DNA from: Yuukianura sp. NJ FZ-2021
Lineage: Eukaryota
Length of the DNA stretch: 64,000 nucleotides
Reading direction: 5' to 3'
Assembly: GCA_046563655.1 (NCBI GenBank)
Contig: CM102290.1
Location: 2,728,001-2,792,000, forward strand
Part shown: in pieces, positions 903 through 58,300 of the stretch
Layout: every line of letters starts with the position of its first letter
Position numbering within the stretch: the stretch's first letter is position 1
Translations under genes and position numbers: made by a program
Notes under the pieces: model-generated
The model's database searches: none
Seen by the model: only the letters and a program-made list of their open reading frames with translations
What the model was told of the DNA's origin: nothing

Positions 903-3900
903 CTGCAAAAAAAATAAAAGAAAAGGAGTTAGAAATAGTAAGTTTGACAAAAAGAAAATCAAAATCAATAGAAAAAACACTTCCCCTTCACTTTTCCGTC
1001 TACCTTTCTTGCCCAACTTCCCCGCCCCCTTCATCAGCCAACGGAGAAAGTCAGAACCGGCCAAAAAAGAGGGTTTAACTCCCTGCCAACTTACTGAAAT
1101 TTTGACAAAGACAATGCTCCATTTCCTATACACTCCATCGTTACTACTAGTACAGAGAACCATTATCTTCATCAGATTCGTCCAAGTCTGCCATGAAAGA
1201 CCAAAATATGAACGCCTCTTTCTCTTTACTTTCTTCATACGTGTCAAATCTGTCCTTTACTCTCCCCTATCCCTCAGTGGATCCCACTCAACTTTGAGCT
1301 GGGACTTGCAAGGATTTCACGAGTTTATAACACTACAAAACTCAAACTTTTTTTGACGTGCAACGTCTTATGTCTAGCCGCTTACTCTCCCCTTTCATCT
1401 CCCGCACACTAATCGAAAATGTAGTCGGAGTTTTCATATGCCAAAAATACGCACTCAACTCATTGGATCAACACTCTACTAACTCAAAAAATGATTACAA
1501 AGATTTAAAAAAAACTCGTTATCATCTCTGAGCAAAGAATTTTCTTCAACTCTAAAAATATGACCTACAAATGTCACAAAAAAAAATCAAATTTCACAAT
1601 GAAAATTAATCAAATTCAGGAACATTTAGTTTAATTTCAGTTTCGCTCTGCATTTCCGATTCCTCTTAAGAAATTAGACGAGACAAAAGGAGAAAGTGGC
1701 TCTTGAGAAGAAAGCATACCTAAAAAAAAGCTTTTATATGAATTGAAAGGATTACGAAAAACGATTATTGAATACCCCACGTGAAAAGAAATGTAACTAG
1801 GACTACCGGTAAATTATAGACATAGAATGCCCACCATTTACTCTTTTCTTCCCCATAATATCTATGAATCTGAAAGGGATAATAATTCTGCCAATCGGTA
1901 TTATACTTCTCCTTTCTCCAATTTCTTTCTCCAGTGAAAGGCACAAGCCACACAAACACGACAAAGTGTTACACAATTCAAAGCTGTACAACATAAAAAA
2001 TTCTATTTCATTATTTTTTGTATAAAAACTACAAAAAAAAAAACGTTGTAATTTAAATCATCTGAAGGAAAAAAAAAACATTCGTCCAAGCTAAGTTTTC
2101 TGTAATAACCATAACTTTTTTGGCAATAGCTCCTAAGGTGCTTCAATTCCTCCAGGTTATATAAATATTCTTTTCTGAGTTATGACGCAAACAGTTTCTC
2201 TAATTTTCAGTTCCAACGTCCCGGAGGACGTGACTTTCAGGAAAAGTAAGACTTTTTGTAGAAAAGACAAAAAAGGAGCAAGTATTTGACAGGCGGCATA
2301 GTAGACAAAAGGAATTGACTGTAGTCGTAGTAGTGAAAGCTCCTCAATGGTTCTATGTTAGGTTTCTTCTCCTTCAATACACAGATGAATCAAGTATGGT
2401 AATGAAGGACATCAGTTCAGTTCCACCAATTTACTGTCTACGTTCCGCCCAAGTCAAAAAAAAATCAACTACACCAAAAATGAGCCACGGCTTTCACTAC
2501 TTTCTTTAACCTTGAAGCAAACAAGCACTTGCGGTTAAAAGTTTTCCGCTTCTTATTCTTATTTAATACTCTTTTTACAAATGAGGTCACCATTTCGACT
2601 ACGCAAAAATTATTACGACAATCTTTCTCCTTTCCCAAAGACATCCATTAATTATAATAATGCCAAAAAACTATGGTTTGTCTGCTCGTGATGTACTATC
2701 TGTCAAATTTTAGGAGAAAAAACAAAAGAAATTACACCAATTTCTAAAAAAAATTCCAACAAAGTCGAAAATTATTTTTAAAAAAAACTCCTCCCTTCAA
2801 ACGAATTTTTTTCTTGACGAAAAACGTAGGTATCACAATCCTCCAGAAATCATAAAAACCAAAAAGCAAAAGAAAACATTTTTTTTTCTTCAAAATTCTC
2901 ACTAAAAAACTTTTTTTCTTGAGGTCGTAATAATATTTCATGTTCAATTTTGTACCTTCCAAAATTTTGGCTTATTCCAAATTTGGGTTAAAATAAATTT
3001 TAAAGATGCTTAGAAAAGAATTTTTTTTTGCCTCAGTGCCCCACTTTGCCTCACTTTCACCACATTTTTTTTTGTAAATCGAAAACTAAAGCTTTTTAAA
3101 TTTTCAAAAACATGCTTTTCTTATGTCAATTTGGTTCTAGAAAAAATTTCGAGCCCAGAACATATCTTACGCGTGGTGTAGTAGTTTCAACATAAAAAAG
3201 AAAACACCAGAAACAAAAATTATGAACAAAACACCTCATCCGAACGTTACGGTTATTCTTTCATGGCAATTCTCACGTACTCCAATTACAGTCGTATACG
3301 GATCAAATGTCAACGGTAAGTAAATGGAAAGTATTTTGTTAGTTTCAGTACCGAGTTTTTAGCAATGCAGTTTCTCGCAAAAAAAAAACTTATTTGGGGC
3401 TCCACAGTTAACCCTGCAACCAAACGGGCTAATGAATGCAAATTAATTAATTTCACTCTAACTTTCGAATTGTAAACAACTTACTAATTAAATGTTTCCT
3501 CATCGCAATTATTTCATTAACAGAAAAGATCAACATCAGCTTGCGAAAACTCAAAGACAATTTCAAAATCCCACTAAACCACAACCGCAGTGTAATAACC
3601 GTCTGACCCCTCACGAAAATAAATATCAAACCCGGACAAATTTAAACTTGTCCGCCATACCGTCCGCCGAATGTGCTCAAACGTTTAAAGTTCATTAAAT
3701 GTCACTGATCACTTCTACCACTTTTTTTTTCATTCATTTCAAAATTGGCTCCAACTACATCCCCATCAACCCATCTTCAATCAACCAAAGCAACTTTAGA
3801 ATAATTATTCCTAAAACTTTTCCATTGTAATCGTTTTGTCTTGTCTTTTTTTGGCTCCCACCGTCACTCCAATTATTCAAAGACTTCCAAGAAATGAACA

Positions 3901-6209
3901 CAGAGAGAGTAGAAAATAGCTCAAATTTAAATTTAGCCTTCTTAATTCACCCTCTCAAGATGTTGAATTGGAGTGGAAAAGGTGGGGTTATATTTAGATC
4001 TCCAATGTCATCTTCCTTCCATGGAGCTTAGGCATTAGCACAACAGATACAGAACATGTCAGGTCACATGCATCAACCATTATTCCACTCCACTCCATTC
4101 CGAACTGAACGCTGCCCCATACATAATCATTCAACTGGACAACACACGCCTCTCTCCACCAAATTCTAATTTTCCTAATGGACATTTCACTTCTGTTTGA
4201 ACAAACTTTAACAAAGTTTTCTTTAATTTTCTTTTTCCAACTGGAATTACAACCAAAGAAAAAGAAAGTCGCAAATCCCGAAGCTTCAGTAAGAAATGAA
4301 AAAAAAAATCTTTTTTGAAGTTTGAAGTTAGTAGTGAGAAACCAATGGGACTTCGTGAAGTTCCTGGCCTTTCTCGAAGGCCCGAGAAAACTCGAAAAAC
4401 GTCTTCCGCCAATTCTATATTTGCTTAAAATGAAATCTTTAGAAAGTTAAGGAAAGGTCGGCACCACATCCGGGAAACCGCATCAACAGGATTTTGTGTT
4501 TAATTTAAATAAAAAAAAGTCTCATTAATCTGGGCTCTGGGAAAACCTCATCTCTAAAAAAGAAGGCACCAGGCAGAGGAAAAGTGAAGGGAGTAACTAA
4601 TTGGAGCCTGAATCTAATCAAGAAACCCTTTGGCTTCTACCCAACTTTAGCTGAATCCTAACCAAATAAAACAAGTTTCAAAAACGAACAAATCCCACGG
4701 CACACACCTCACAGCACAGCAGCAGAACCAGTTGAACAACATAATCTCGTTCAATCTTTCAAAAGATGCAGTTACTATGTAGTAACGAGAGCCAGAGAGG
4801 TTAGAAATAGACGTGCACTCTAGGGATCTTATGTCATTCGGGTTATGATTAGTTGACTTTTCATTAGGCAATTTTTCTTTTCAATTCTTTTCATCTTTAT
4901 CTTTAATTAAGTTCCTGTTGTAAGTCGGCGGGGACATTTCTTCAGAAGTTTTTAAATCCAAATTTCTAGGATTTCACAGATAAAAAAAATCATCATCACA
5001 AAAAATCCGAAAAATGAAAATTGTTCTCGTTCCAGAAAGTTCATGGAAACTCCAAATTCAAAAACGGCTTCAAAATTCGATGTTTTGGAACCGAGAAACG
5101 TAATTGAGGTCAACAATTTGATCAGAGAAAAAACTAATTGTAATTAATTGCTTCCAAATTGGCATCCTACTCTTCATATGACTCAAGATCAAGTTCCAAA
5201 GTGAACATGCAACAAGAAAGTGCACTTTGTCTCTCTCGACAACGGAAACGGGTTAATTTTAGATGGAGATACACGAGGAGCAGGTCGATATAATTTTTAA
5301 ACTTTCATAGAAATTGTCAACTCGTAGTAGCCGTTTTGAATCCATTTGTAGCCTCATCCGCTTCCTAGTAAAATGTATGAGAAGTGGATCGAACATCTTT
5401 AAGATTCCTTTCAAAACCAAGAGAAAAATTCTAAATCAAATTTTCTCTGCTCTTGCAAGACTGAAAGGAATACTGTGTATGTAAAGAGAAAGGAAGGAAG
5501 AAGGTACGGGATTTTTGTTAGGTCATGTCAATGCACGTTACAGAAATGAGTGGCAGCGAAGAATCTTCAGACCTTGAACCCATAAAAGCTGAAATGTTCT
5601 TAAACATTTCGTTTGTTCCCGTTTCCTCTGCCCCTCTCTTTTACCTAAAAAGGAAAGTGGCTTTCACCCAAGTTCCTCCTTAAACTTTAACACACAAAAG
5701 GCTATGGAGGAGGCAACCATAGTCTGTTCTCTGTTAAAAGGAAAATGGATTGGAGACAATACTCAGCAAACACTTCTGGAGAAAGCTTACTTCTTTGGGG
5801 CCTGACCTTAAAACCATTCCTTTCAATTCCAACAAAACACAAAATACCAATGGCAAAATCGAATTAATTATGAAGGAAGCAAACAGCAGAGCGACTTTCT
5901 CCTTTCGCAATTCTACTTTTCGCAAAGTAAAATAAAAAAAAAAGACCTCCACCCTTGCCATTTTCAAATAATAGAACAAAAAGCGCTGGAAATGGAGAAA
6001 GGTTCTACACTTGTTCTTCACGGACATGAATTCAATTACACCAAGTTCATCACCGTCAACACTGAAAAATTCGCTTGGTCCGTATGCAAAAAAATCCGTA
6101 AAAAAATGCAAAATTGAATAGCCTAGTCTAATCCTGACATAAACAATCTTACTTCAAGACGTGACCTTGCTTTCTCCTTCGAAATCGAAAACCTGCCCAT
6201 TCATCAAAC

Positions 6210-12473: not shown

Positions 12474-13439
12474 ATGTTCAGAAAGTAAGTTGACAATCAG
12501 CAGTGCCGACTGTGCTGACTGCTGAGCTGAAGTGCTGATTCAGCACAGCACCAGCATGTGTTGCATTTGGATTTGGAGAACTAACGTGATGTAATAATTG
12601 TCTACTTACTTGTCAATTGTTGTTTTTAGATTCAGCGAAAAGGAATCCGTTTCGGGTATGCAACAATTGAAATCGTCGGTCCAGAAGCAAATTAGAAACA
12701 AAATTCTAGAATATTATCCAGAACTTGATCCATACATCGAAGGTATTTTTCCCAAGAAAGATAGCTTCAAAATCGTTAAATGGTAAGCTTAAATCCCGTG
12801 TTGTTACATCTGTCAAAACGATTGTGCAGATCAGTGGATACGCCTTGGTTTTATCGTTCTGTTTTAGCCATGATCATATCGAGATTATAGTGTCTGGTAC
12901 TGGAGAAGCCTTATTTTTCAAACACAGGGAAGGAGCATGGTTTCCCACATTACGTCTTCTTCATCAGTGTGAGTGGGTCACTGAATCATGCTACACAATA
13001 AAAATATGACATAATTTCAGATTTTTAGTTAATTTCAGGATAGCGTAACTGGACATTTTTGTTTTTGTTTTTTAGATCCATTCATGCTTGCTCAGGAACA
13101 AGTTGATCGCGGTGCCATAAAGTTTGTTCTCAGCGGTGCAAACGTAATGTGTCCTGGTCTTACCTCTGCTGGTGCCAAGCTGACAGATGTTCCAAAGGAT
13201 ACGATTGTTGCTGTGATGGCTGAGGGGAAGCAGTTCGCATTAGCTGTCGGAATTACTGTGATGTCTACTGCAGATATGTGAGTCTGAAGAAGATGATATA
13301 AATAATTCGATAACTAAAACCAACGTTAAATAGTGATTAACTTTAACCTTGTTATAGAACGAAAATCAATCGTGGAATAGGAATCGAGATTGTCCATTAC
13401 CTCAACGATGGCCTCTGGACTTTGAAGCCAATGAAATGA
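12474..13439 (+). CDS. MCTS1: Malignant T-cell-amplified sequence 1 (MCT-1; PUA-domain translation re-initiation factor), 182 aa, 5 exons
   Basis: Exons 12474-12484, 12630-12782, 12868-12968, 13076-13277, 13358-13439, all GT-AG and in frame. Protein MFRKFSEKE...KIVKCHDHIEI...[11 protein letters not shown]...[22 protein letters not shown]...HYLNDGLW is diagnostic. AATAAA at 13680-13685. Confidence 0.96.
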
Positions 13440-13920
13440 GTGGGTGTACTTTCGCCTACGTCACAACACTAATGCAGAGAGCATGGAAGACCCCGTTTGT
13501 CCCGCGCATGAAGTACCCTCACTCGGATTCATTATGCCAGGCAGTCACGCAAAATTTTAACTTAAATTAAGTAAATCTTAATTTCTTACATCTTAAGTTT
13601 TCAAACTAAGAAGTCTGGATTTGAGGACTGCTCGGAGAAGTTGATTCCAAATGAACTACCCCCTGCAGAACAAAATACCAATAAATTTTCATCAAACTAA
13701 AGCTGAGGGCTTTCGGAAATTCATCTCATGCTTTTCTCCAACAGGATATCGTCTTCGTCATGCAATTGGTGATTCTATGGAACTTCTTTCTCCGAGCATT
13801 CCTTCCGTGTTTGTTGACAAGACGAGGGAGGTTTTGTCCCGTGCCACTTTTGGTGGGCTGGACTCAGTATCTCCCTACGACAAGATTCAGAGGAGCCATA
13901 AGGTTACAATTTGAGTTCCT

Positions 13921-14113: not shown

Positions 14114-15973
14114 ATGACCTTACTTTTGTCACTCATCACCTTTACTTCCCTCGTCTGCGTCCATGGTAAGTGAAAAATTCAGTATCATTGTATAGTTGAT
14201 GGAATCAATTGTTAAGCGCAGCTTGTTCTTAGTTAATTTGAACTTGCGCTATTGAAACAGGACAACAGAACGATAAGGGGACGTCAATGATTCCCTTCCC
14301 ACGGATTGGACGAGCCGATCCGCGATTCTTCATGGAAGGAAAGCGAAGTGGGAACTCACTCTCGCCAGGTCTCATCCCCTTTCCACGAATTGGCCGATCT
14401 GACGGTAAAATTCTGCCAAAACTATACTGAACCTTGACATTCCATTTGTAACTGTTTAATAAGCTTTGTTCCACAGGAATGCATGAATCGAAGCGACAGT
14501 TGATTCCCTTCCCGCGAGTTGGAAAGCGACCTTACTGGCGCGTACCCGTGGACTCATACCCACTGGAGTACGAAGACTACTCTTTTCCAATGGTTGAGGT
14601 TCCGTCGGTGTCCATGATTGGTCCGGAGTTCGGTCAGGGAATGTCCGACGAGACTGAGGCAGAGAAGCGAATGGCTGGGGCTACTGGCCCAAGCAATAAC
14701 AACAACAATGGTGGTATGTGGTTTGGTCCGAGGCTTGGAAGGAGGAAGCGATCTGTAGAGAGCAGCAGTGACTCCAGTGTAGTCGACACACGTCTACTGC
14801 TCAACATTTTACATAATTTTAACTGGGCCATTGTCCCTCTCAAAGGTAAGGCAGGCGAGGAACAGTCTTAATTTTTTGGCCATCAAGTCTGAAATGGTCA
14901 CATGACTTAATGTTGTCCATGGACGCGTCGTTCTGCGCATGGTAAATGCCCTTTTGATTTCTGTATGTCAAATGTCTGTTTCCGTTGTCTCTGGTACAGT
15001 GTTTGTATCGACCTTAGTACTGTGCTCCGTCAACATTTGAGAAATGTACATATCCTTTCTGAAATTTTGATGAACATAAAATAAAATTACGACAGAGTCA
15101 CGAACAAAAACTGTTGGCCGTAGTGCATTCTGTGTCCTTTGTGTCGTAACTTTTTCGTTCATGTCAGCGCCTCATAAATAAACCAATGTAATTCAATGTC
15201 GTAATTACGAAATATTGGTCGTTCAAGTCGTCAGTCGTTGTCATTAGTATGCCTTAACTGTCCCAGTCGCTGTCCATTAGAAAGCTAAGCCCTAGGACGT
15301 GACGTTGACTGGAACTGTTACAGAGCGGAGAACGTTTACACCACGACTTGGTCGCAGTTCCTCAGAAGAGAGTCCACTGAGGGGAATTTCTCAGAGGGCG
15401 GAGCCTTACACGCCAAGGTTCGTTGAAATCGTTCATTATTCATGTTGACAGACCGCAATAAGTCGTGACAAAAGAGACTTAAGTTGTTGGCGAACTTGTA
15501 TTCATTCCAGGTTGGGAAGATCATCTGAAGGGGTCTCCGGAGGGGATTACGATGAGGATTCCAGTGTTCATCGCTACTCCAGAAACAACAATGACAACAC
15601 CAGGACCCAGAAGAATCCTAAGGGACAGTCCGAAGAGACTAATGTTGGCGGAGTGCCGTTCGCTCCCAGACTTGGTCGAGACAACATGATTCCAAGACTA
15701 GGCAGAGACAACATGAGTCCAAGGCTTGGGAGGGATAACATGAGTCCAAGACTTGGGCGGGATAACATGAGTCCAAGACTTGGCCGGGATAACATGAGTC
15801 CAAGACTTGGGCGGGATAACATGAGTCCAAGGCTTGGCCGGGATAACATGAGTCCAAGGCTTGGCCGGGATAATATGAGTCCAAGGCTTGGGCGGGATAA
15901 CATGAGTCCAAGGCTTGGCCGAGACAACATTAGTCCACGACTTGGAAGATCAAGTGACGATGACCGGGAGTAA
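14114..15973 (+). CDS. Capa: Combined CAPA/pyrokinin (PRXamide) neuropeptide precursor, 373 aa, 5 coding exons
   Basis: Exons 14114-14165, 14261-14404, 14477-14845, 15324-15417, 15511-15973 (GT-AG, phases 1,1,1,2). Signal peptide MTLLLSLITFTSLVCVHG. Periviscerokinins GTSMIPFPRI-GR, SGNSLSPGLIPFPRI-GR and QLIPFPRV-GKR. Tryptopyrokinin ...GGMWFGPRL-GRRKR. Pyrokinins TFTPRL-GR, AEPYTPRL-GR, VPFAPRL-GR and ten DN(M/I)(S/I)PRL-GR. AATAAA at 16041-16046. Confidence 0.95.
15680..15949 (+). repeat. Coding 27-bp tandem repeat, 10 copies (DNMSPRLGR)
   Basis: Unit approximately gataacatgagtccaagrcttggscgg. Variation is almost all at third codon positions; copy 1 is DNMIPRLGR and copy 10 is DNISPRLGR. 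Confidence 0.97.
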
Positions 15974-17126
15974 ACCTGCGTTAACTTAAATGACATTAAA
16001 CAATCCATGTTAATTCGAAGCCCCAAAATACTCAGCGCGAAATAAATTTTGTTTGCGACAAATCGTCTTTGGGAAGCAAAGTTTAGTTCGAGTAACGGAC
16101 GAGATGGAAATTGCTAAATTTTTACTTGAACTGGAATGGCTTGAAGTCCACCCCCATAAAGCATTTACTAATTGAATAAGAATTCTGCTAACAATTAGAT
16201 GTATAAAATAACACAGTCAAGGGGAAATGTTGCTTTATATTAATTTTGGTGACTTTAATGTGATGAACTGGCCTTAAAGTGACTTTTAATCTTAATGTGC
16301 TCGTATACAAAAGGAAAATTATACTTTCGCAGCAGTATTGCTTATGGTAACCGGGATACTGGAAAAATTAAATAGCCTTTTGCTCTAATCCCTGACGGTC
16401 GTGCATGCCTTTAACTAAATTCTGGCAAAATATGACTTAAACATGTTCAATAGTCTTATTAATTAGCAAATTAGAAAATTATAAGTTTAGAAGTAGTAGT
16501 CACATTGCTATTAGCAAACTGGACGAAATTGGCAAAAACAAATTGAGGACGAAAAAGCTTGGGCGGACATAGAAAAACGTAATAGTAGATGTTTATATCC
16601 CAAATTTAGACTAATCCATTCAGAACGACGACGAAAAGATGGCCTATCCCTGCCTGAGTAACTTCAACTTCAAAATGCAAAGTACTCTACAGCGTTCTAG
16701 TTGAACTATTCCATACCCCTCCCGATTGCAATGACTAACGTCAGACTAACATTTGACTCCTTTGCAAACGAATTGGTTCAAAACATTTGAGGTGAGATGG
16801 ACTTGAATAACCAATTGCGCAAATACGTTACATATAAATAGGATAGGAACAATCTAGGCGGAACATGAAGGGTGTCCAGCCCTAATTGATTGACGTCTAA
16901 GTGGCAGGGTAAAGTCCGGAATATCAAAAGGTCAACCTGGAAAAGTGAAACGCTAACACGAGCATACAGAGAACTACGCCTTTGCATTGTAGGATTATTG
17001 GTGCGTGTCGTACATTTTGCATTCTAAGTAGAGATTATAGATGAGATGAAAGCAGACTTACAGGGTGCGGTAGTCTGAAGTGACGTTGGCTTTTGAAGAA
17101 TGTAGTAATGATCGTTTGTGCTTCGT

Positions 17127-19546
17127 TTATATTAGAAATATTTCGTCATGGTGCATGATGAGAAAATCGGTGAAGGTATTGATGGGAGCAATTGCGGCTA
17201 GCGACAGGTTCAGACTCGGAGACCAAAGCAAGTTTGGTCCAAAAACAACAGCCAGGTTGGATGACGTCATCTTGTTCAAGTCGCTCCTATCTGACACCTA
17301 TAAAGCAAACGATAACATTTTATCACCACATCTTAGGTCAATGTAAGGATTAACGACCGTCATGGTAGCCACTCCGCCATTTTTAATCGGTGACTGAAGT
17401 AACCGTTTCAACACAACCTAAGTAACAAGTACGTGGGAACCGTAGCAGGTAATTTGGTCGGAATGGCAGAGGTCGGCAGGCGTATATGGAATTTAGGTTA
17501 GGTTTGGTTAATCTTTCTAATGCTAGGGGTAGGTTAGGTATGCCGACCTCTGCGTTTTCGACCAATCAAATTCCGACCAAATTACCAGGAACCCGTGGGA
17601 ACGGTTGCCGCAGTGTAACCACTTATTGTAGCCACTGAAATGGAGTGGCTACACTGTGTGGCTACAATGACGGTCGTTAAACCTTACCCCAACCCAATTT
17701 AGGACTGTGTATTCATTCGAATACACAATTCACTGACCTTCGCGAGGAACCGAATTATATACTTCAAAAGTGCGTAATTGTCTTCAGGGAGTTTCTCCAA
17801 TATCACTTGCTTTACAAACGGCCCTCTGTCATCCTTCGTTAGCTCTAAAATAGCAAACAAATGGTTAAAATACTGCTGAGATTTTTAGTTGTTAAAACTA
17901 GATTTCGTAAATTCAGTACTTGAAAAGTCTATAACTTCGTCAAAAAGGTCGAAGGTAAGAAGAGGTTCCTGCAGCTCCCGTAGAAATGCCTTTATCAGCA
18001 CGGCAGCTAAGTGAAAATCATTCCCAAAGTCAACTGTTTCACCTCTGTTGGCTTTTGCCTGGGATTCCTTGACCACGTTAGCGGAAGCCGATCGACGAAA
18101 TAAGCCTTCGGTAGCCAAAGCTGAAACATGCAATAATAAATAATATTTAAAATAAACACTTAAAATCATACTACGACAGAACTTTTGACATAACCCAAAA
18201 CCTGTCATTTGTCTCGTCTCACCTTCCGGCTGACTCAGGAATTCGACGCATTGTCTCACAATAGGCGGAATGACATCATCATTGTTATGTTCCTTGATAA
18301 ACTGAATTGAAACTCCGAACTGTTGTGTGTCCAAAGCTGCGTGGAACGTCGTTGTTGAGGTAGGGGCGTAAGAGGGAACGGATTTCGTAGCTTTCGCTCT
18401 GAGTTGAAGATCATGCCTAAAATGATTAGGTGACATTTAGCCTGAAGAACGTTAAAAAATAGGAAATTGTGATAATTTGTTATTACTTACTCCAAAACTT
18501 GCTCCGGTATACAAAGTTGATCCAATTTAATTTGCTGATTCAACTCCGCAAGGTAATTGATGTACATGACTTTCTTACCGAATTTTGCACTGTTCAATTC
18601 AACAGCAGAGACAAGTTATTATGCAGAAAAAATGGATGGCAGCCATCCGATGGCTGTTCAAATGCTGCTGAACTTACCTAATGGCGGGCTTGAAGAGCTG
18701 AAAAGTGAGTTTGATGAAGTTTGTAGGGTGAACGAGGTAAAGTGATTTAAGATTCTTCTTGTACTTTCTTTCAAATGCTCGATAGGCCTGCCAAAGCCAT
18801 GTCAGGGGAGGTTTATTCTTGCTATTGAGTCCATGATGAAAGTAGACTAAGGAGTAATCCTGCTCCACATACTTGTCAAGGGTGTACAACAAGTATCTAA
18901 AAGTGAGAAGGGTGTCAATCATATTTGAAGTAACATCAACATTACGCGAAGTTCAGTATTCACCTGAGGAACCTATGGTGATCGAATGTATGATTTGGCG
19001 GCAACTTGCACGAAGCTAGTACTATGATTTTTCTGCCATACGCATCATCGCCAACTACTTCAACGATATTATGTTTAGCAATGTCAGAATAGTCTTCTTC
19101 GTCTTGAAGCGGAGTGGTAGGAATAGAGTCCGAATCAGCTATAAACGGCGCTGCCGCTAGTTCCTCTTCAAAATTGTCTTCAATGGTCCCGTCGGAAACG
19201 GGTGATTCCAGGTACTCAAACACCTTCACTTCTTCGATATCTGAAAATCAAAAGTACCAGTAGTTGCAAATTGTAGTGAATAAATTGAAAGAAATAGGAT
19301 AACAACTATACCCGTAGGAGCAGCTCCCTCCAGCTCAGTATCGTCAAATTCCAAGTTTGGTTCGTAGTCATGAAAATCTGAGAGACTCCGGTACTGGTCC
19401 TCGGCTTCTTGAGCAGAAGAGGCTGTGGATACAAGAGAATACATGACGTACGGACTGAAACAACGACATTCAGACCATTGACAGTGACGACAATTCGTTT
19501 ACTCATACTCATACTCACCATCCTTATTCTCCACGACTTCCTCCAT
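17127..19546 (-). CDS. RhoGAP68F: Rho GTPase-activating protein with BCH/CRAL-TRIO (Sec14-like) and RhoGAP domains (ARHGAP1/8, RhoGAP68F family), 468 aa, 9 coding exons
   Basis: Exons 19546-19519, 19422-19312, 19240-18964, 18896-18678, 18589-18491, 18416-18223, 18120-17920, 17844-17738, 17297-17127. Motifs: [32 protein letters not shown]...[21 protein letters not shown]; arginine finger [26 protein letters not shown]. The first exon is the least certain. Confidence 0.94.
17346..17684. mobile_element. MITE in the last RhoGAP intron, TA-flanked
   Basis: TIRs of about 27 bp: aggattaacgaccgtcatggtagccac and gtggctacaatgacggtcgttaaacct (2 mismatches), with TA on both sides. Confidence 0.75.
17441..17593. 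mobile_element. Nested 153-bp MITE with 9-bp TSD (Mutator-like)
   Basis: Direct repeat cgtgggaac at 17432-17440 and 17594-17602. TIR core ggtaatttggtcggaat / attccgaccaaattacc, plus inner inverted repeat gcagaggtcggca / tgccgacctctgc. Confidence 0.75.
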
Positions 19547-21103: not shown

Positions 21104-21844
21104 TAGCTCATTTTTTCGCTGCCTAATAATTAATTCTTATTTTGACGATGCTCGATTCAAAATAAAGTAATGATCGGGTAGGCGCCAGACTTACTATCAC
21201 GGCACACGGTTTGCACAGAATTCTTTCCGCGCTCGCCGGCGCCGCACCAATAACGCATGTGTGTGAAATCTCTTGAAAACGTGATTCCGAGATCAGAATT
21301 TTTGTTGAAAGTAATAAAGTAAATCGTTATATACTAACATAAAATAAGTTTTTGTTGCGAAAAGCCGGTTCCGTTTCAGAAGAAACCAAAAAGAATTTAA
21401 CTACTTCCTGTTCTTCCTGAACTAGTTCCTGTTTACATACGCTGGAAGAGAAGTAAGTGTTAATTTGTAAAATCATGTTATTGAATTGATTGAAACAAGT
21501 TGTCGCCTAACGCAAACTTACTTTTAAAGTCTTTTAGGTATTTCTTTCAAGTTTTAACTATATAGGAAGCTCAATTCGCCCATCCTTTTGCTCTTTGTCT
21601 TGGTCCTCGTGTTCCTCTTCGGTCAGATTCCGCTGGATTTAGTCTTACGCGTCCGAAAGGTGTGTAGACAAGGTAACTGGTCAGTATGACTCGTGACATA
21701 ATGTATTGAATTACAGGAAATCTTAACCTGACCTCCAATATAAAAATCACTAAATAAAATGCCGTCTGTATTGTGGTAGGCTACAGTAAATTCAAGCACT
21801 CCATTCACCAGTTGCAGCCCGCAGTAACCCGTACTACCGTCATC

Positions 21845-22238
21845 ATGTCTGGATTCTCAACCGAAATGGATTTATCAGGTGGCGCTGGTGGAGCAGAAAC
21901 ACAACAAGGAGAAGAATTACAAGAGTTCCTTTACCTCGAGCAACAACGAGCTCAGCTTAGGTCGCAGGTACAGTACAGAAGATGTAAAAGCAAAAGTTAA
22001 ATCAACTACGAGCACTGAGCAGGACGCTAACACGTTAAAATGCTTATTTGGACTACGACAGATTCAAGTTTTGACGGATACTTGTTGGGAGAAATGTGTC
22101 GATAAACCGCAGCCGAAGTTAGATACGAAGACAGAATCCTGCCTAGAGAACTGTGCTGCCAGGTTCGTTGACGTTACACTTCTCATAACGAATAGATTTG
22201 CCCAAGTACTTCAAAGGTCAGCAGGTGGAATGCAATAG
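21845..22238 (+). CDS. Tim8: Mitochondrial import inner membrane translocase subunit Tim8 (small Tim chaperone), 99 aa, 2 coding exons
   Basis: Exons 21845-21967 and 22062-22238. ELQEFLYLEQQRAQLRSQ|IQVLTDTCWEKCVDKP...ESCLENCAARFVD contains the twin CX3C motif in a Tim8-type context. Confidence 0.93.
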
Positions 22239-31700: not shown

Positions 31701-34700
31701 GAACAAAGGCATTACACCGCTTGAATCTCCTACAGTTGAATCCCTTAAGCGACTAATAAACTCCTAGTATTTGAACAACATAAAACTTTTCAAGCTAATT
31801 TCTAAACAAGTGGAGAAGACACTTCCACTTCTGCCAGCATTTGTCGCAACTTTCACTTTTCGTTATTATTAGTTTCGCAGAAACTTTTTTTTGTGCAAGT
31901 TCTTTTTTAAAAAAAAACTCCAAAAAAATGCTTGAATTACACACTTCAAAAATAAAGAGGTTCAAGCGCCTAAAAAGCCTTGGGAAGCCTAAAAAAAATT
32001 AGGAAACCTAATACACTTGACTTTCTTTTCAAGAATTTTTGAAAATTGAGATTCAAAATTTAAGAGCACCGAAATTTAATAAACCACTTCAATGTTTACT
32101 TTAGCACTTTTTTGGTTACTAAAGTGGTTGAGAAAGTCATAGTAGTATTTGATAGAGTCACTGCAGTGAGTGCCTGGAGATTAAGGAAGAATGAACCATG
32201 AAATTAGATTGAAGATGGCAAAGTTTAAGCAGCGGGAAAAGAAAGCACACGAAAGCTGCAAACGGTTTCTGGAGTGTCAAAAGTCAAAGAAAAAATGGAG
32301 CAGAGGATTTTCTTCTTGGATCGTCTGATTCAAATCTCCGTCCTTTTGAAATCTACTCCCGCCAGCGTCTCCAGAAGCTATTCTAACCTAACTAAAACTC
32401 CCTCCAGTCGTCGATCATAGCCAACCTGATTTAAGGTCTACCCAAAAGACATTTCCATTGTCTTCGGAACTTTCTCCTGAAGGGAACAATGGGACACACA
32501 CCGTGAGATTTCGTCATGAATTGAAGACGCCAGTTAGAACTTTCTTATGTTCTCAGAAATCAGTACGGAAGAGAGATGACACGATTTTCCTGGACCGTTT
32601 CACTCATTGTCCAACAACCGTTTGGAACTGGCCCAAAACATGTTTTTCATCATTTCCTGCTCAAACGACTCCTGATTTTCACATTGCCAATTTTCTTTTA
32701 CAAATGAAACTGATGAAAATCGCATCAATAAATGTCTGCCAAACGGCTGACAGTTTAGGTCCGGTCCAATTCATCGTCTGTTTAATCGTGCCGCTCAGAA
32801 CAAAAAAAAATCGAAACTGGCTCCCAAACTTTCTCTTAGCATTCCAAACCTAACAAAATAGTCGATACACCGTTGAAAACTATGTTTCGACGGTTTTCTT
32901 TTTTGGTTTTTCAGTAGGATTTAGTTTAGAATCTTCTACACATCCTTTAATAATATTTTCTGACTCATGATCAGATCTGCCAAAAATATTTAGTTCCCAT
33001 GCCTGTAATGTTAACACAATCAATATTTCTGGTCCTCTTCTTACTAAATATTTATTTACCAATAGCCTTATTAATGTTAAGTTTGTAAATTTTCCGAGCA
33101 TTTTTGGTAAATATAGTATTTATCTAAATATTTGGCTTGTTTTGGTAAATATTTTTGGCAGGTTTGTTTATAATTTAAAATTGTCCAAAGAAAAAATATG
33201 TAACATGTTTTTATGATGCTAAATCAACTCACCTGAGCACGTGACTGTTCTCCAACCAGGATGACATCCCGTGTAGCATCGTGAATTGGAATGTCGGAGA
33301 TGTAGAGACCTCTGGTGGTAAGTCCTTCGAGGCCATCAATGAGCGGTGACCCCAGGAACAGCAAAGACTGAGACTCACAGCAGTCAATCATCTGACCTTT
33401 CAACTCCATGCCCTAAAATATCCAGAGGTCAAGATAGAACAAAGCACCATCAAAAATCTCCCCATCTTTATTGACAGTCCAATAATCTCGAGCCGAAGAA
33501 GGAAATAGTTACTCCCTCCATTCTCCTCCGCTTTTTGATTTAACGAGAAAGTGGAAAAGGGGAAATGGCCTCAAATAAAATCCCGCTTTATGACCCCTCC
33601 ATGTCATCCAAAGTCAAAATAGCGCCGAATTTGAAGTGGATCTTTAGCTATTGGGTAATAAACAACAGCAAATGGGATTGGAGAGCCTTCGTGTACAATT
33701 CATTCTTTTGATTAGAGGCCAACAAAGGGATTAATGCCCAACTCTGGTCCCATTGGAGGAGATTGAGAGAGAGTTGGAATCAAGGTTCCTTGACAACGAA
33801 AAGCTAATTTCATTTAACAGGTTGGGTACTACCACGCTTGTTGACAAAAAAAAACGAAAAATTAGCACCAATTTAGTACCAATCTGAAAAATTGGTATCA
33901 AATCGTATGAAAAATTTCAAAAAAAAAATCAGCGTTATTGTTATGACTACGATGCCCCGAAATGAAAAGATACTTTTTTTCTTGCAAAATCAGAAAAAAT
34001 GATGCATTGCCCAACCTGTTAAAGAAAATCAAGAGTCAACAAACCTTGGCTGGAATGTTGAGGCTGTGATCTTTGATGTTAAAAGGGCGGAAGTTTTAAA
34101 TCCAGCGGAAGTATATTGAAATGGGGGTACTTCTTCATGACAAAGGGCCATGGGGCATGCTTTCTCCTGATTAACTGCCGGGTTAAATCTTACCCAAAAA
34201 TTACTTTTTTCTTGGCGCAGAAGACAATGGAGGAGAGCAAGGCAGAGATGGGCTAAAAAAAGAAACAAAAAAAATGTGGGAGTTTTAAAAACAAACCTCA
34301 GCAAGTTGCTTGGCCCCATTATTCCTTGCCAAATGAACAAGACGCAGAAGGAATGGTGTGTTCAGTCGTTGGAAAATTGTGTCAAAGGAAATTTCATTTC
34401 CTAAATGAGGACGAACGAATTGAAAGAAGTGAGTGACTGGGATGGAACGGGCAGACCAACACGATCCCACCGATTGCTTCTGACTCAGTTGTTGTTGCTG
34501 ATGGACCAGAAAAGTCGGAGCAAATAATTTCAGGAGCGACGACCCCAGTTGAACAATGCGTAGGTCTTTGTCCAGAATGAAATGCCAAGGAAAGGCTTCA
34601 CTGAACATCTTTACAGACAGAGCAAGGTCCCTGGACACTTCGGTTTTCTTAGTCTGGACTTTCTTCCCGCCGACTTCCAAAACTTCCTTGGGCATCAGAC

Positions 34701-37700
34701 TCAATTTGTATTGGAAATGGAGCTCCCGGCTTCCGTCCAGACCCTCTTCTGATTGGTTTACAATTGACTCTGCGGGGTAACTGTCAATGGTTACCTTGGA
34801 TGAATAGAGATTTGTGCAAATGGCAGTTAGGAGACTTTGAAAAAATGGACCGAGGAGCTCTACGGCGGAGCTCGTTTTGTAGACGACAGTGTACCGAACA
34901 ACTCCGGATTCTTCGTCAAAACCGTCAAGAGAACCGGCACTTCCCGAATCTCGCGTCGTGATGATCGTTTCCCTCATGTTTCCCATCATTGCTAACCTAT
35001 GTCAACCGGAACATTCAAAATTGAGCAATGCAACTTTAAAATGAAAAGTTAAAAATATAGAAAGAATAGGGGTTGGAATTCACAATTTTAGAAAAAAAAA
35101 AATTCTTACAACTTTCAATAATTGATTCAAAATAATCAAAAAATTACCCTTGGCTTGAATGTTTTAGTACTTCAAGTACACCGTCCAAGTTGATTAGGAA
35201 GTTTGCGAAATCTGGTCCCAGGGCTTTGTATGCTCTTTCGAAATGTGACAGACAGTTGGAGAAATACACAAAACCCAACGCCATTACGAAGCTCAGTTTC
35301 TCCTGTTCCATCCCTAAAAATTCAAAATTTCAACAACAAAAAAAATGTTTGTTTTATAAAGATTAAAATTAAATTCTTCTTTAAATTAAATTCTAGAAGT
35401 CCTATGTTTATTTATTAATGGAATTCCGTCGTGGCAATCCCAGAGACTAAGAAGTGAGTTGAGATAGTTACGTTTTTAACTTGTATTTTTTTACGTGGCG
35501 AATCTTTTGTAAAGTTTCTATTTTTTGAAAGGTTCCATGCCATTGTTTCAAATGAAATGTTTCAAATCGAATTGCTTCAAATGAATTGTTTCAAATCAAA
35601 TTGTTTCAAAAGGTAAATTGTTTCAAAAGGTAAATTGTTTCAAAAGGTAAATTGTTTCAAACAAAATTGTTTCAAATCGAATTGTTTCAAATGGTCAATT
35701 GTTTCAAAAGGTAAATTGTTTCAAACAGAACTGTTTCTAAAAAAAATTGTTTCAAATGACCATAATTGGTTCTATAGTTTGTCTATTTTAAGAAGGCGGG
35801 TTTGTTTCGTTGATTTTTTCGCTTCCATTGCGACGCTTATGGCAAAACTCAGTTTTTGAAAAACACTTTCTCCATTAGGTTTGTATACAAAATTTCAAGA
35901 AATTGATAATTTCTATGTTAACGGTCCATAAGGCGACTGAAATTTTTTCAAATTTGAAAACCGCCTTCTAAAAATAGACAAACTATAAAGGTAAATTGTT
36001 TAAAAAAATTGTTTCTAAAAAAATTTGTTTCTAAACCCAAATTGCTTCTAAAGGGAAATTGTTTTTAGAAATAATTTCAAATTAACGAACTAGTTAACAA
36101 CTTAGATGTTTGTTCCAAAAATGTTTATTTTAACAAAATCAAATACCATTATTCAAAAAATGTAAAGACATGAGCAACAATGGCTATCAGAAGTACGCAA
36201 GCGCGAAACGAACAATTCAACTTAAATTCAAATTCAATTCCTAAATCTAATTTCTAATTACCCAATCACGCAATAAAGTACTAACCTATAAACTTAAGTA
36301 AGTAATAACATACAAAACTAATTCAAAACTAAAACTATCAGTCAACGAGTCAAAATTGGCCATTAGAAACAATTTATTTTTAGAAACAGTTCTGTTTGAA
36401 ACAATTTACCTTTTGAAACAATTGATCATTTGAAACAATTCGATTTGAAACAATTCATTTGAAGCAATTCGATTTGAAACATTTCATTTGAAACAATGGC
36501 ATGCTCCCTTTTGAAACAAGGTGCTTGATGGAACTAACCATAAATTGAGTAGTTGGATCCGAAGTAAGTTACCGAAGTGAAAAACTTTTAGTTGAAGAGG
36601 AAGAGGAAGAAAAGAACTTTTCAGAGGGCGGAATAAGAAAATAATGGCGAAAGCTAAAAAGAAAGTACAAATCCAACCTATTCCATCGTAACTGCACAAA
36701 AACTCGCGTGTTTTCTCCATTTTCATTTCACCGCCAAAAAATAAAAATAAAATGAACTGATGCGTACCACCGTACTCTCCGCAGTGATTATAGCATAGGG
36801 AGTTCAGGAACAGGAGACACACGGGGTGTGGAAAACAGTTTCAAAGTTGAATTTCAACTGTAGATAAACTTTTATGTAACGACGAATCTGTATTTGAGAT
36901 CTCGAAAATTTCAGATTTCCCACATAATGAAAAAACCTTTGTTGATTTCCAAAACCATTCCATTCCATTTATCTTTCGGATTCAATTTTTCTCATCTGGG
37001 ATTTTTTTAGACAGGTTTTCTGTTCTTTTCCCTGGAAGTTAAACTATTTGTGACCAACGTTTGTACCTTTTGGGTGTCAACGTTAGGATCAAGGTTCCTT
37101 GATAACTGAATTGTATTTCCTGCAACATGTTGTCTATTAACTAAGGGTTTTTCAAAAATCTTGGTTCAAACAACTTTTACCACCAATTTTGCACCAATCC
37201 CATTTAGAATACATGCAAAAATTACCATAGAAAGCCAGATTTGCCAGTTTCAAATTTTCAAAGTTCGAGTTATCGGACAACCTGGTGTAGAAAAAGTTTT
37301 TTTTTTGTTTATTAGGATATATTTAAATTGTGGAAATGGCAGAAGGTGAATTCTATTTTGACAAGTTGTAGTTGTCAAGAATTTGGTTTCTATTTTGATT
37401 ACGTCAACCTGTCACAGTTCCAGGATAGTTTTCCCGTCGCTCCTACCTTCAGCTAGTTTACATTATTCTGGAACGTTGGAAAGCCATATTCAGGTTCAGC
37501 CTAATGGGATAAGTGACGGCTTCACAATAAACGTCGCATAGTCATGAACTTCTGCTCTTTTTTCAGCGACATAAGAAGCTTCGTCGACGAAAGAACAGTT
37601 AGAGAAAGCCGGGAGTTTTTTCGAGAAAGTTGAAATTTGGTTGAAAGTAGACATTTATCACTTTCTCCATAACCGAAGAAGTCAGAGCGTTCCTGCTGCA

Positions 37701-55300: not shown

Positions 55301-58300
55301 CAATTGCCAAAATGATATTCTGGTTTCTCCGCCTCTTTTCGAGGACAAAACTTGAATTGAATCCAAGAAAGTTCACAGGCTCTCGACCTCTTTTGTCGTG
55401 CTTTGTGGCAAGAGTTTTGTCGTATAGCAGAATAGTAAGTTGGACAAATTAGAAAGTCCCTTGTGGTAACGTGCACGACATTCCGCTTCTTCCAGGACCT
55501 CCTCTTTACCATCTTAGCATGAATTATGGGCACTGGAGTGCCAGTTCGAGTGGAGTTAAACAAAATTATGTAGTTGAATAAGCTATGCTATGATCAGAAG
55601 CAGAAACTAGCCAAAGCACTGACTAGTCTAACTGAGACTAGGTTTATTTGCCACGATTAGGCTTCTGATCGCTTTTACAGCTCAAACTGTTTCCATTAGC
55701 AGCTATCAAAGTATATTCAAAGTCCTTTGAAAACGAAGTTTGTTTGAAGCTAAGATTTCATTTGAAGTTTTAAACCGAGTTCTAAAAGACTTCTGCAACC
55801 ACTTTTGAAGTGGTCTATAAAACCACTGAAAAACGTTGTAGTTACTACAAAAACTAAAACGTTGTAGTAGGTGTCACATTTTTTGAACTGGGAGTTTCTT
55901 AAGTATGTTTGGGGGAAGGTGGGCCGTAGATACTTGTGAGCTCAAGTGGTAAGCTTCACCTGAAAAGCTGTAAACATGAAGGAGGAAAGGCTGCATAACA
56001 CAAAGTAAATATTTGTGCATGGATTTTCTCTACAGTGAAAGCAAAGGGAACTGACTCTGACCTCAAATTGGCTTCGAGCAAAGGAACGAGAAATCCCTCA
56101 TGAATAATTGCCCAGCTCTGACTTCACTCACTTTCACCCTCCCCTCAGTCTTAATCAATCTGCTTTCACTACACTTTTTCCAGCAACATACTAAGGTGTA
56201 CACCTACGATTAACCTAACCTGTAATTTACATCAAAGTCACTAAAATTACATAAACTAGCCTTAGCAATGTACTTATCTACCATAATAATTTATGTAGAA
56301 TCAAAACGTTAACGTAACAAAACTCGAAATTCATTGTGGTACAAAAAGTGTGGGTCGTTGGAAAAATTTGTGGAAGAAGCGAAATGATATTTTCAGTGTA
56401 AACTTGGGCGAGTTAAAAAACATGTTTTGTTTAAAAAAGAATCAATTTTGTTTCATTTTTTTGCTTAGTCTTTTGTTTCACTCAAAGTAAACAATATTTA
56501 TATTTGTCAAAATAACACCAGAAAAAGGAACTTGAGCATCAGTTTTAAATTGAAAAACGGGCAAAAAATTGAAGAGCTGCCGCGTGCTCCCTGTGGCGAT
56601 GTGTCGTTCATGTATTTGGTTTGTACTGTTGTGTGTCTTGTTTTTTGTATCGTCAAACCTTCCAGAAAAAAAACGGAAGAAGAAAGTTTGGCCGCTGGCG
56701 AAAGTAATGTACTGTTCCTTCGTAAGGTGGAATTATATTTTCCCGCGTGTCAAGTTCCTAGAGTGAGTATCTTCTGCTCAAGATACAAGTTGGTTTTCTC
56801 TTTGGGGAAGAACATAATGTTTTCCTTAGGAAAATATAATTGAGTGGAGTCGTGCTTCACTGCTTCAGTCATCTTGAAGCTCAAAAACTGCACGAATACT
56901 TGCCACTGTCACGGAGGTGCTAAAAACCTTTCAAGTTTTTAAAACTGACAAAAATTGTCATTTCAGGAGTATGTTCGTTTTCGGAAAAATGTTATAAAGA
57001 TGCGTTCGAGTTTGAAAAACAAAGAATTCAATGCTGTTGAGTCCCTTACAGGAAAAGGGGATCCAAAAATTTCAAATTTTGAACCATGCTATTTCGAAAA
57101 ATTTCTTTATTGAAAATTTTTGTTATGACTTGATTTTTATAAAAATTTTCAAATGAAATCGAAAGTCTTGAATTTTTCCAATTCTTGGCATAACTCTGTA
57201 AATTTTGAACAAAATTTTACTCTTCAAAATTGTTTTGCCTAAATTTTTTTTCAAGCCTTTTGTCATGTTTGCTATTCAGTCGCACAATATTAAAAGCTGA
57301 GTTTTTATTGAACCGTCGACTTTTCTGACAAATCATGATGGATCATATTGTATTACTTTCTTGGCCACTTTTACGTTTGAAATTTGAGATTCATCTTTTT
57401 TGTTAACCTGTGTTCTGTCTAACCTTTGTAATTGATTGCAGTTTAACTAACCTAACCTATCCATTTTCTTCAAAGATGTAAAATGTCAACGTTACATTTA
57501 GAAAAAAAAAGTGATTTAAAAGCTCGCTTTTTTGTTGGAAAAAGACTAGACAAAAAACCTGATTTGCTTTTTTCTTCGACAAACTTGATGTCAAAGAGAA
57601 AGTTCTACACTATGTTTCAGAAGATTTTTCAAAAAGCGTATCCCGACGGCGGCAAAACGCTGCTGAAGGGTTCCAGAGCTGAAAGTTAATTTCTTTTTGG
57701 AACACGGTGTGCTCATCATTGAACTTTCCAATTTTTCGGCAAGGAAGCGAAAATTCCTTTCTTCTCGTTTGACTCATTATCTGGACAATAGATGCGGAAA
57801 AGAATGAAGAAAAAATGCGACTCTGAGAAGTAGCACGGTGTTAAAGGCAGACAATGGCAAAAAACACGGAAGGTTCGCGGACTCCAAAAAAACCGAAAAA
57901 CCGCGTTTTTTTTCTCTCCTCTTTTCCGCGAGTGCCGTTTACGAACGGCAGTGATGGTGAGTAGTGCACGGTTAGTTTGAAACCGTGGATTGCTATCGAT
58001 TCTCTTAGCAGTGGTACCTAAAGCCTAACTTTCTCTTCGAAAAGTGTAACGCAGTAAAGAAGAAGATGGTTAGGCATCCTTAAGTGTTCGTATTATTACT
58101 TGCCTCCCCCCTTTGCAAACATTCTCATCATCAAGTTCCGTCATCCACTGCGACGACCACGGCAGTTCTCAAGCCATTACTACATTCCAAGAAAAGCAAA
58201 CAGAAAATAATAATCCACTTTTCGGCGAGTGCTTACTCTTATTTCAAATTCTTTGTTACCAATGCCGAATACTGCTGTGAAAGTGAACGGAACAGGAAAG

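Follow-up and report, generated by a model that had tools for sequence, protein, structure and literature searches.

The closest described counterparts of the locus analyzed here are the combined capa/pk genes of springtails (Collembola). In all the collembolans examined by Derst et al. 2016, a single gene is described as encoding periviscerokinins (PVKs), one tryptopyrokinin and pyrokinins (pattern B), with 3 ± 0, 1 ± 0 and 3.6 ± 1.1 copies, respectively; according to the sections of that paper on these species, no peptidomics accompanied them (PMC4770511). The single collembolan capa/pk gene is repeated in the relevant passages of Farris 2023 (PMC9853942) and of Dou and Jurenka 2023 (PMC10755894). 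Here, we have analyzed a 64,000-nucleotide stretch of DNA from Yuukianura sp. NJ FZ-2021 (contig CM102290.1, positions 2,728,001 to 2,792,000; the window), in which a gene of this kind ends in a tandem array of ten pyrokinin-type units that carry Met or Ile, and never an aromatic residue, at the first position of the pyrokinin core. We consider it probable that this array arose by amplification of the last pyrokinin slot in a springtail capa/pk gene, and that its products are ligands of an aliphatic-tolerant pyrokinin-type receptor whose dose has been raised.

The array occupies positions 15680 to 15949 on the + strand and is composed of ten in-frame units of nine codons (27 bp each), all read in a single frame:

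Unit 1: DNMIPRLGR
Units 2 to 9: DNMSPRLGR, eight copies
Unit 10: DNISPRLGR

A previous sequence-only reading of this DNA had given the same coordinates and the same counts (eight DNMSPRL, one DNMIPRL and one DNISPRL, all followed by Gly-Arg), all of which proved correct when the sequence was re-read. Tandem Repeats Finder reported one array at 15664–15945 (period 27, 10.4 copies, 90% matches, no indels, score 396). Neither a frameshift nor a stop codon is present over the 270 bp, and the other two + frames contain many stops. All ten units possess the PRL-G signature (C-terminal Pro-Arg-Leu plus Gly as amide donor) as well as a convertase-type context, in which the single Arg is preceded by another at −4 (PRLGR), and the same context is found in the relatives described below and in other pyrokinin precursors. 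None of the ten units has Phe or Tyr as the first core residue, Met being present in nine and Ile in one. Opposite-strand coding across the array was considered and rejected: two of the three minus frames are open, which is an artefact of the short repeat, and no homologues were sought or found.

Differences between the units are informative about both the selection on the array and its history. Ten of the 27 columns are variable, eight of them by synonymous differences only, and the two non-synonymous columns (Ile for Ser in unit 1, Ile for Met in unit 10) both concern edge units. When minimal changes per column were counted, nine synonymous and two non-synonymous changes were obtained, compared to 22–26% synonymous expected when single bases of the consensus unit are changed at random (binomial P = 4.7e-5 to 1.7e-4). 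The array units are thus under purifying selection on the encoded peptide, as had been proposed in the sequence-only reading from differences that were nearly all synonymous. Its suggestion of unequal crossing-over fits as well: 3–8 bases separate edge from inner units, compared to 0–4 among the inner units, which is the pattern expected if unequal crossing-over has homogenized the center of the array.

Because 27-bp tandem units are error-prone in short-read assemblies, and since units 3 and 5 are identical to each other, as are units 6 and 7, the array might be a copy-number artefact, with fewer or more units at the true locus. Eight distinct sequences are present among the ten units, and exact repeats inside the array reach 46 bp at most, short enough for the copy number to be fixed by ordinary reads; both features make a gross assembly error unlikely. 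In addition, the array is just 270 bp long and stays in frame, and the window does not contain any N. An artefactual copy number is hence highly improbable.

The array forms the 3′ end of a five-exon gene (14114–15973, + strand) with a 1122-nt coding sequence of 373 codons and a single terminal stop; each of its four introns is bounded by GT and AG. The features of this gene are listed below, all on the + strand:

14114–14165, + strand: exon 1, start codon and putative signal peptide MTLLLSLITFTSLVCVH, then base 1 of a Gly codon (read from the sequence)
14261–14404, + strand: exon 2, PVK 1, spacer and PVK 2
14263–14313, + strand: PVK 1, ending in GTSMIPFPRI-GR
14314–14346, + strand: spacer ADPRFFME-GKR
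14347–14397, + strand: PVK 2, SGNSLSPGLIPFPRI-GR
14477–14845, + strand: exon 3, PVK 3, acidic spacer, tryptopyrokinin and conserved NFNWAIVP tail
14497–14529, + strand: PVK 3, QLIPFPRV-GKR
14671–14751, + strand: tryptopyrokinin, ending in NNGGMWFGPRL-GRRKR
14846–15323, + strand: intron 3
15324–15417, + strand: exon 4, ERR, pyrokinin 1 and the first part of pyrokinin 2
15332–15355, + strand: pyrokinin 1, TFTPRL-GR
Across exons 4 and 5, + strand: pyrokinin 2, reading AEPYTPR at the end of exon 4, with intron 4 inside the Arg codon and the end LG-R in exon 5
15511–15973, + strand: exon 5, end of pyrokinin 2, acidic/basic spacer, pyrokinin 3, array, tail and stop
15653–15679, + strand: pyrokinin 3, ending in VPFAPRL-GR
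15950–15973, + strand: C-terminal tail SSDDDRE and TAA stop (stop at 15971–15973)
16041–16046, + strand: candidate AATAAA polyadenylation signal (motif only), 68 bases 3′ of the stop

A protein search with exon 3 yielded four matches (P0003–P0006; E values 4e-33 to 5e-20), two of which are named, i.e., Allacma fusca (P0004) and Folsomia candida (P0006, LOC110845107 isoform X2), and the order of products is identical in all four. A scan of metagenomes added five genomic loci (L001–L005). Pyrokinin exons are present in L001, L003 and L004; none was found within 2.4 kb 3′ of exon 3 in L002 (L002 1100–3556), and the L005 sequence stops just 3′ of exon 3. The nearest relative found is L001, whose exon 3 is 63% (tblastn) or 66% (tree alignment) identical to that of the window and pairs with it in the exon-3 tree (support 94/96).

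Comparison with these sequences supports the gene structure exon by exon. The exon 1 donor reads CATG/gtaagt, and a similar hydrophobic N-terminus is found in P0003–P0006. Exon 2 is collinear with the same four proteins and with L001, and contains a Pfam Periviscerokinin match (PF08259, 21.7 bits, cut-off 15). The alignment of exon 3, whose donor is AAAG/gtaagg, has 43 invariant columns over five sequences. Pyrokinin 2 is split by an intron at the same place in L001, L003 and L004, and the first part of exon 5 (15511–15679) is 54% identical to the last exon of L001. The exon 5 translation has a borderline match to Pfam PBAN (PF05874, 24.0 bits, cut-off 22.7), and the acidic tail resembles those of L001 (SSTDEHD) and Allacma (SGEDRD). 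The collembolan capa/pk precursors of Folsomia and Allacma show the same product order from signal peptide to acidic tail, sharing with the window three PVKs, MWFGPRL, the NFNWAIVP tail, T/NFTPRL, the intron-split pyrokinin and the terminal pyrokinins; exon 3 is 45–52% (BLASTP) or 50–60% (alignment) identical to their proteins. Taken together, the gene architecture, the relatives and the description in PMC4770511 indicate that the window comes from a springtail-type hexapod and that its gene is of a known kind, namely the single combined capa/pk gene of springtails.

The sequence-only reading had spoken of the tandem amplification of an atypical pyrokinin. Pyrokinin-type paracopies in a secretory precursor are indeed what the gene encodes, but a plain pk/pban gene is rejected since PVKs and a tryptopyrokinin share the reading frame. 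An identity resembling ecdysis-triggering hormone (ETH) was also rejected for the array peptide, which does not fit the features of ETH, i.e., Asn at −5, an aliphatic residue at −4 and a Lys-rich N-terminal part. In total, 17 PRXamide copies are encoded (three PVKs, one tryptopyrokinin and 13 pyrokinins), ten of which come from the array, so that the earlier claim that an MSPRL-type peptide would be the most abundant product holds at the level of prediction. The three pyrokinins upstream of the array have F, Y and F at core position 1. No further PRLG-type gene was found in the window, which has one isolated, chance-like match at 57174–57212. The 13 pyrokinin copies are far beyond the collembolan range of 3.6 ± 1.1 reported in the copy-number summary of PMC4770511, and the full sequences of the relatives contain 1–5. 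The window differs from the described collembolan genes in this number and in a terminal slot that is Met/Ile and tenfold.

The slot that immediately precedes the acidic tail has the following sequences in the relatives:

Allacma: DHFSPRL
Folsomia: SDPFSPRL and ADPFSPRL, two copies
L004: AEPFSPRL
L003: DHYSPRL
P0005: ADHYSSRLR, decayed
L001: DHINPRL, one copy

The orthologous slot is thus a canonical pyrokinin in four relatives (Allacma, Folsomia, L003 and L004). L001 resembles the window in its exon structure, in the non-aromatic terminal slot and in the codon used, which is ATT both in its slot and in unit 10 (ATG in units 1–9). It differs from the window in having a single slot copy and no array, with Ile and Asn in place of the Met and Ser of the array units.

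We also surveyed the core residue in the nine readable pyrokinin regions (window, L001, L003, L004, P0003, P0004, P0005, P0006 and P0080), and found Ile, Leu or Met at core position 1 of at least one slot in five of them: Met nine times and Ile once in the window, Ile in L001, Ile in two slots of L003, and Leu in P0005 and in Folsomia P0006. The L003 region (3669–3985) has Ile in its QPISPR/LG and APISPRLGR slots, yet Tyr in the terminal slot. By comparison, the first slot (T/NFTPRL) has Phe in all eight sequences possessing it. Hence, of the oddity pointed out earlier, i.e., Met in place of Phe, the absence of an aromatic residue from all ten units stands, but its isolation does not. On these sequences, springtails appear to tolerate Ile, Leu or Met in the later pyrokinin slots, with at least one canonical copy always retained. 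Considering the Ile in the terminal slot of L001 and the Ile or Leu slots of three further relatives, loss of the aromatic residue is apparently a wider springtail tendency and is probably older than the amplification.

A simple history of the array may be proposed from these codons. The ancestral slot would have been D-H-F/Y-S-PRL, in which Ile (TTY to ATT) arose in the common ancestor of the window species and L001. In a single copy, Ile would then have been replaced by Met (ATT to ATG), and this copy would have been multiplied by unequal crossing-over, with older variants surviving at both edges of the array. Met lies two base changes away from Phe (TTY), with Ile one step along the way, so that a passage from Phe through Ile to Met would be the simplest order.

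Prohormones of this type are handled by standard neuropeptide processing, including cleavage under the monobasic rule. The 373-residue preprohormone would enter the secretory pathway by means of its signal peptide, prohormone convertases would cleave after KR, RRKR and each single Arg of PRLGR (Arg at −4 being the usual monobasic context), a carboxypeptidase would trim the Arg, and the amidating enzyme would convert Gly to a C-terminal amide. Each precursor is then predicted to yield three PVKs, one tryptopyrokinin, three ordinary F/Y-x-PRLamide pyrokinins and ten heptapeptides, i.e., eight DNMSPRLamide, one DNMIPRLamide and one DNISPRLamide, with predicted [M+H]+ values of 831.41, 857.47 and 813.46, respectively. 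The heptapeptides would be working ligands of a springtail pyrokinin-type receptor that accepts aliphatic as well as thioether side chains at core position 1; amplification of the slot would chiefly lift the molar output of heptapeptide relative to the CAPA peptides of the same gene. In the passages of Veenstra 2019 on this subject, paracopy numbers are described as differing among and inside species, and a need for much peptide is suggested to maintain extra copies (PMC6585902); this demand idea fits the dosage reading of the array.

Several observations weigh against the view that the array peptides are dose-raised ligands of an aliphatic-tolerant receptor. Reviews give FXPRLamide as the minimal requirement for activity in the passages concerned (PMC10755894, PMC8541414), and an atypical Lygus pyrokinin is reported as inactive on a moth receptor, a peptide that differs at the C-terminal residue and not at Phe (PMC8541414). 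The selection test has just 11 inferred changes, which gene conversion leaves partly non-independent. The proposed order of substitutions rests on parsimony with one relative, and the other six of the seven inner branches of the exon-3 tree are without resolution. The motif M-x-PR[LIV]-G was found in 0 of 156 other proteins, including the best 150 of 413 HMMER hits, and Met at core position 1 in none of the five scanned loci (L001–L005). Finally, the pyrokinin part of the gene is labile or dispensable in some springtails, as seen in P0003, where slot 1 and the terminal slots have been lost and one pyrokinin is left.

Such lability also bears on a different explanation, in which the array is a near-neutral expansion of a decaying terminal slot and its peptides are by-products with little or no signal. 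Besides the single pyrokinin of P0003, the degenerate HYSSRLR of P0005 and the failure to find pyrokinin exons within 2.4 kb downstream of exon 3 in L002 are in line with this explanation, as are the short pyrokinin-free transcript reported for some collembolans (in the transcript descriptions of PMC4770511) and the view, in the review passages cited above for insects, that the core Phe is required (PMC10755894, PMC8541414). Against this explanation stand the synonymous excess of 9 to 2, the intact PRLGR processing and amidation signal in 10/10 units, and 270 bp free of frameshifts and stops. We regard low-activity by-products as unlikely.

Another possibility is that the Met/Ile heptapeptides have become a new ligand class, moved to another co-evolved PRXamide receptor (CAPA, tryptopyrokinin, ETH-type or duplicated pyrokinin receptor) in the way of tryptopyrokinin. 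The aromatic residue has gone from all ten units while three canonical pyrokinins persist upstream, slot 1 has kept its Phe in 7/7 relatives having it, the array is under purifying selection, and the capa/pk system is described as rapidly evolving new ligands in the part of PMC4770511 that deals with its evolution. On the other hand, Ile/Leu variants are spread over three slots in relatives without amplification, which suggests tolerance rather than new specificity, and the tick pyrokinin receptor is reported in PMC8887807 as loosely selective, taking Val or Ile for the terminal Leu, although that result concerns the last residue only. A move to another receptor is therefore given a small chance. 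The further-reaching claim that the Met-type heptapeptide is a fourth PRXamide ligand type with its own or retuned receptor, an extra signalling channel that one springtail lineage gained by the passage from Phe through Ile to Met and a tenfold amplification, is doubtful. An altered receptor preference, a co-evolved receptor and a weak or modulatory activity had also been considered in the sequence-only reading, all of them speculative; given Ile in the slot of the nearest relative and Ile or Leu in pyrokinin slots of other relatives, a receptor tolerant of aliphatic residues appears at least as likely as a changed preference.

Amplification of the terminal slot is not confined to the window. 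P0080, a 151-residue fragment of springtail-like capa/pk type that is collinear with the C-terminal region of Folsomia (47% identity), contains at least seven tandem xPFSPRLGR copies and nine PRL sites. It shares with the window the tandem amplification of the same slot, and differs from it in that Phe is found in each copy and that the units are 10–12 residues long and less uniform. Judging from these sequences, terminal-slot amplification is recurrent (two copies in Folsomia, at least seven in P0080), with P0080 representing an independent event with the normal Phe. What is distinctive of the window is the combination of the highest copy number seen with the Met variant.

Outside springtails, the only precursors retrieved by word-based protein searches with the last exon were one of the mantis shrimp Oratosquilla oratoria (LOC143027910 isoform X2, P0007) and one of a moth. 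Like the window gene, the crustacean precursor contains ten xxPRLG(K)R copies; in contrast, it has Phe in all ten and no PVK or tryptopyrokinin part. Its alignment with the last exon of the window, at 39% identity and 64% query coverage, is due to the repeated PRLG units. A 698-residue protein (P0008, E = 6.6e-3) is a weak match and probably unrelated, and the lone bacterial match of an Atlas search, at 0.78, was dismissed as meaningless. The FXPRLamide precursors of insects (pk/pban or hugin) share with the window PRL-Gly plus a basic cut site and the Pfam PBAN match. They differ in that the gene of winged insects is described as separate from capa (in the gene comparisons of PMC4770511 and PMC9853942), and compared to insect pyrokinins the array has Met instead of Phe first, short heptapeptides and a high copy number.

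The array peptide had not been recognized in the sequence-only reading, and our searches agree with this. The HMMER scan covered 1.84 billion representative proteins, and the motif check was made on the 150 best of 413 hits, P0158 lying outside it. No neuropeptide description of MSPRL-type or related amide peptides was found among the papers listed in the literature searches, which do not extend to the supplement of PMC4770511 with the precursors of nine collembolan species. Thus, no earlier description of a Met-type pyrokinin array was found in the searches made; the array departs from FXPRLamide in the aromatic core residue in 10/10 units and agrees with it in the other sequence characters. 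Two further proteins, P0016 and P0121, look like secretory multi-copy PRLamide precursors without an aromatic core residue: P0016 has 17 copies of x-V-PRLG(R/K) and a Pfam PBAN match that passes the cut-off (28.3 bits), and P0121 has seven EAPPRLGKR-type units.

In FXPRLamide, Phe is regarded as an invariable element of the pyrokinin pharmacophore, and receptor-directed peptides for pest control have been designed around it. A natural precursor with Met in its main predicted product offers a ready test of the Phe requirement beyond winged insects, as do the Ile/Leu variants of springtails. In addition, springtails, which are reported as the lowest in paracopy numbers among basal hexapods, can still grow one slot to ten copies. 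The practical value is modest, comprising one peptide, three masses and one receptor family. The array is a real, selected and lineage-specific variant, in which paracopy expansion and a core substitution, both ordinary in neuropeptide evolution, come together.

Some collembolans are described by Derst et al. 2016 as having a second capa/pk transcript without pyrokinins (pattern B1), in the transcript section of PMC4770511. In the window, if the exon 3 donor is read through, eight further codons (GKAGEEQS) precede a TAA stop at 14869–14871, and intron 3 contains two AATAAA motifs, at 15080 and 15177. These sequence features are compatible with intron 3 read-through, which could be a route to a short transcript with PVKs and tryptopyrokinin only. 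A Gly-Lys shared by the relatives after exon 3 was rejected as a coding feature, being the G/GTAAG donor consensus.

The spacer at 14314–14346, between PVK 1 and PVK 2, has a Gly-Lys-Arg amidation-type signal of its own. Its counterparts are ADPRFFMDGKR in L001, PDRYYMDGKR in P0003 and ADRFYMSDKR, without Gly, in Allacma, and the stretch is missing in Folsomia and P0005. Some springtails may thereby have an additional amidated peptide.

Other genes in the window include a PUA-domain gene at 13076–13440, which ends just upstream of the capa/pk gene (Pfam PUA, 46.7 bits) and which we take to be MCTS1-like. Further exons encode a RhoGAP domain (17888–18436, − strand), a Tim10/DDP zinc finger (21828–22235, + strand) and an HNOBA domain of the guanylate-cyclase type (34288–35001, − strand).

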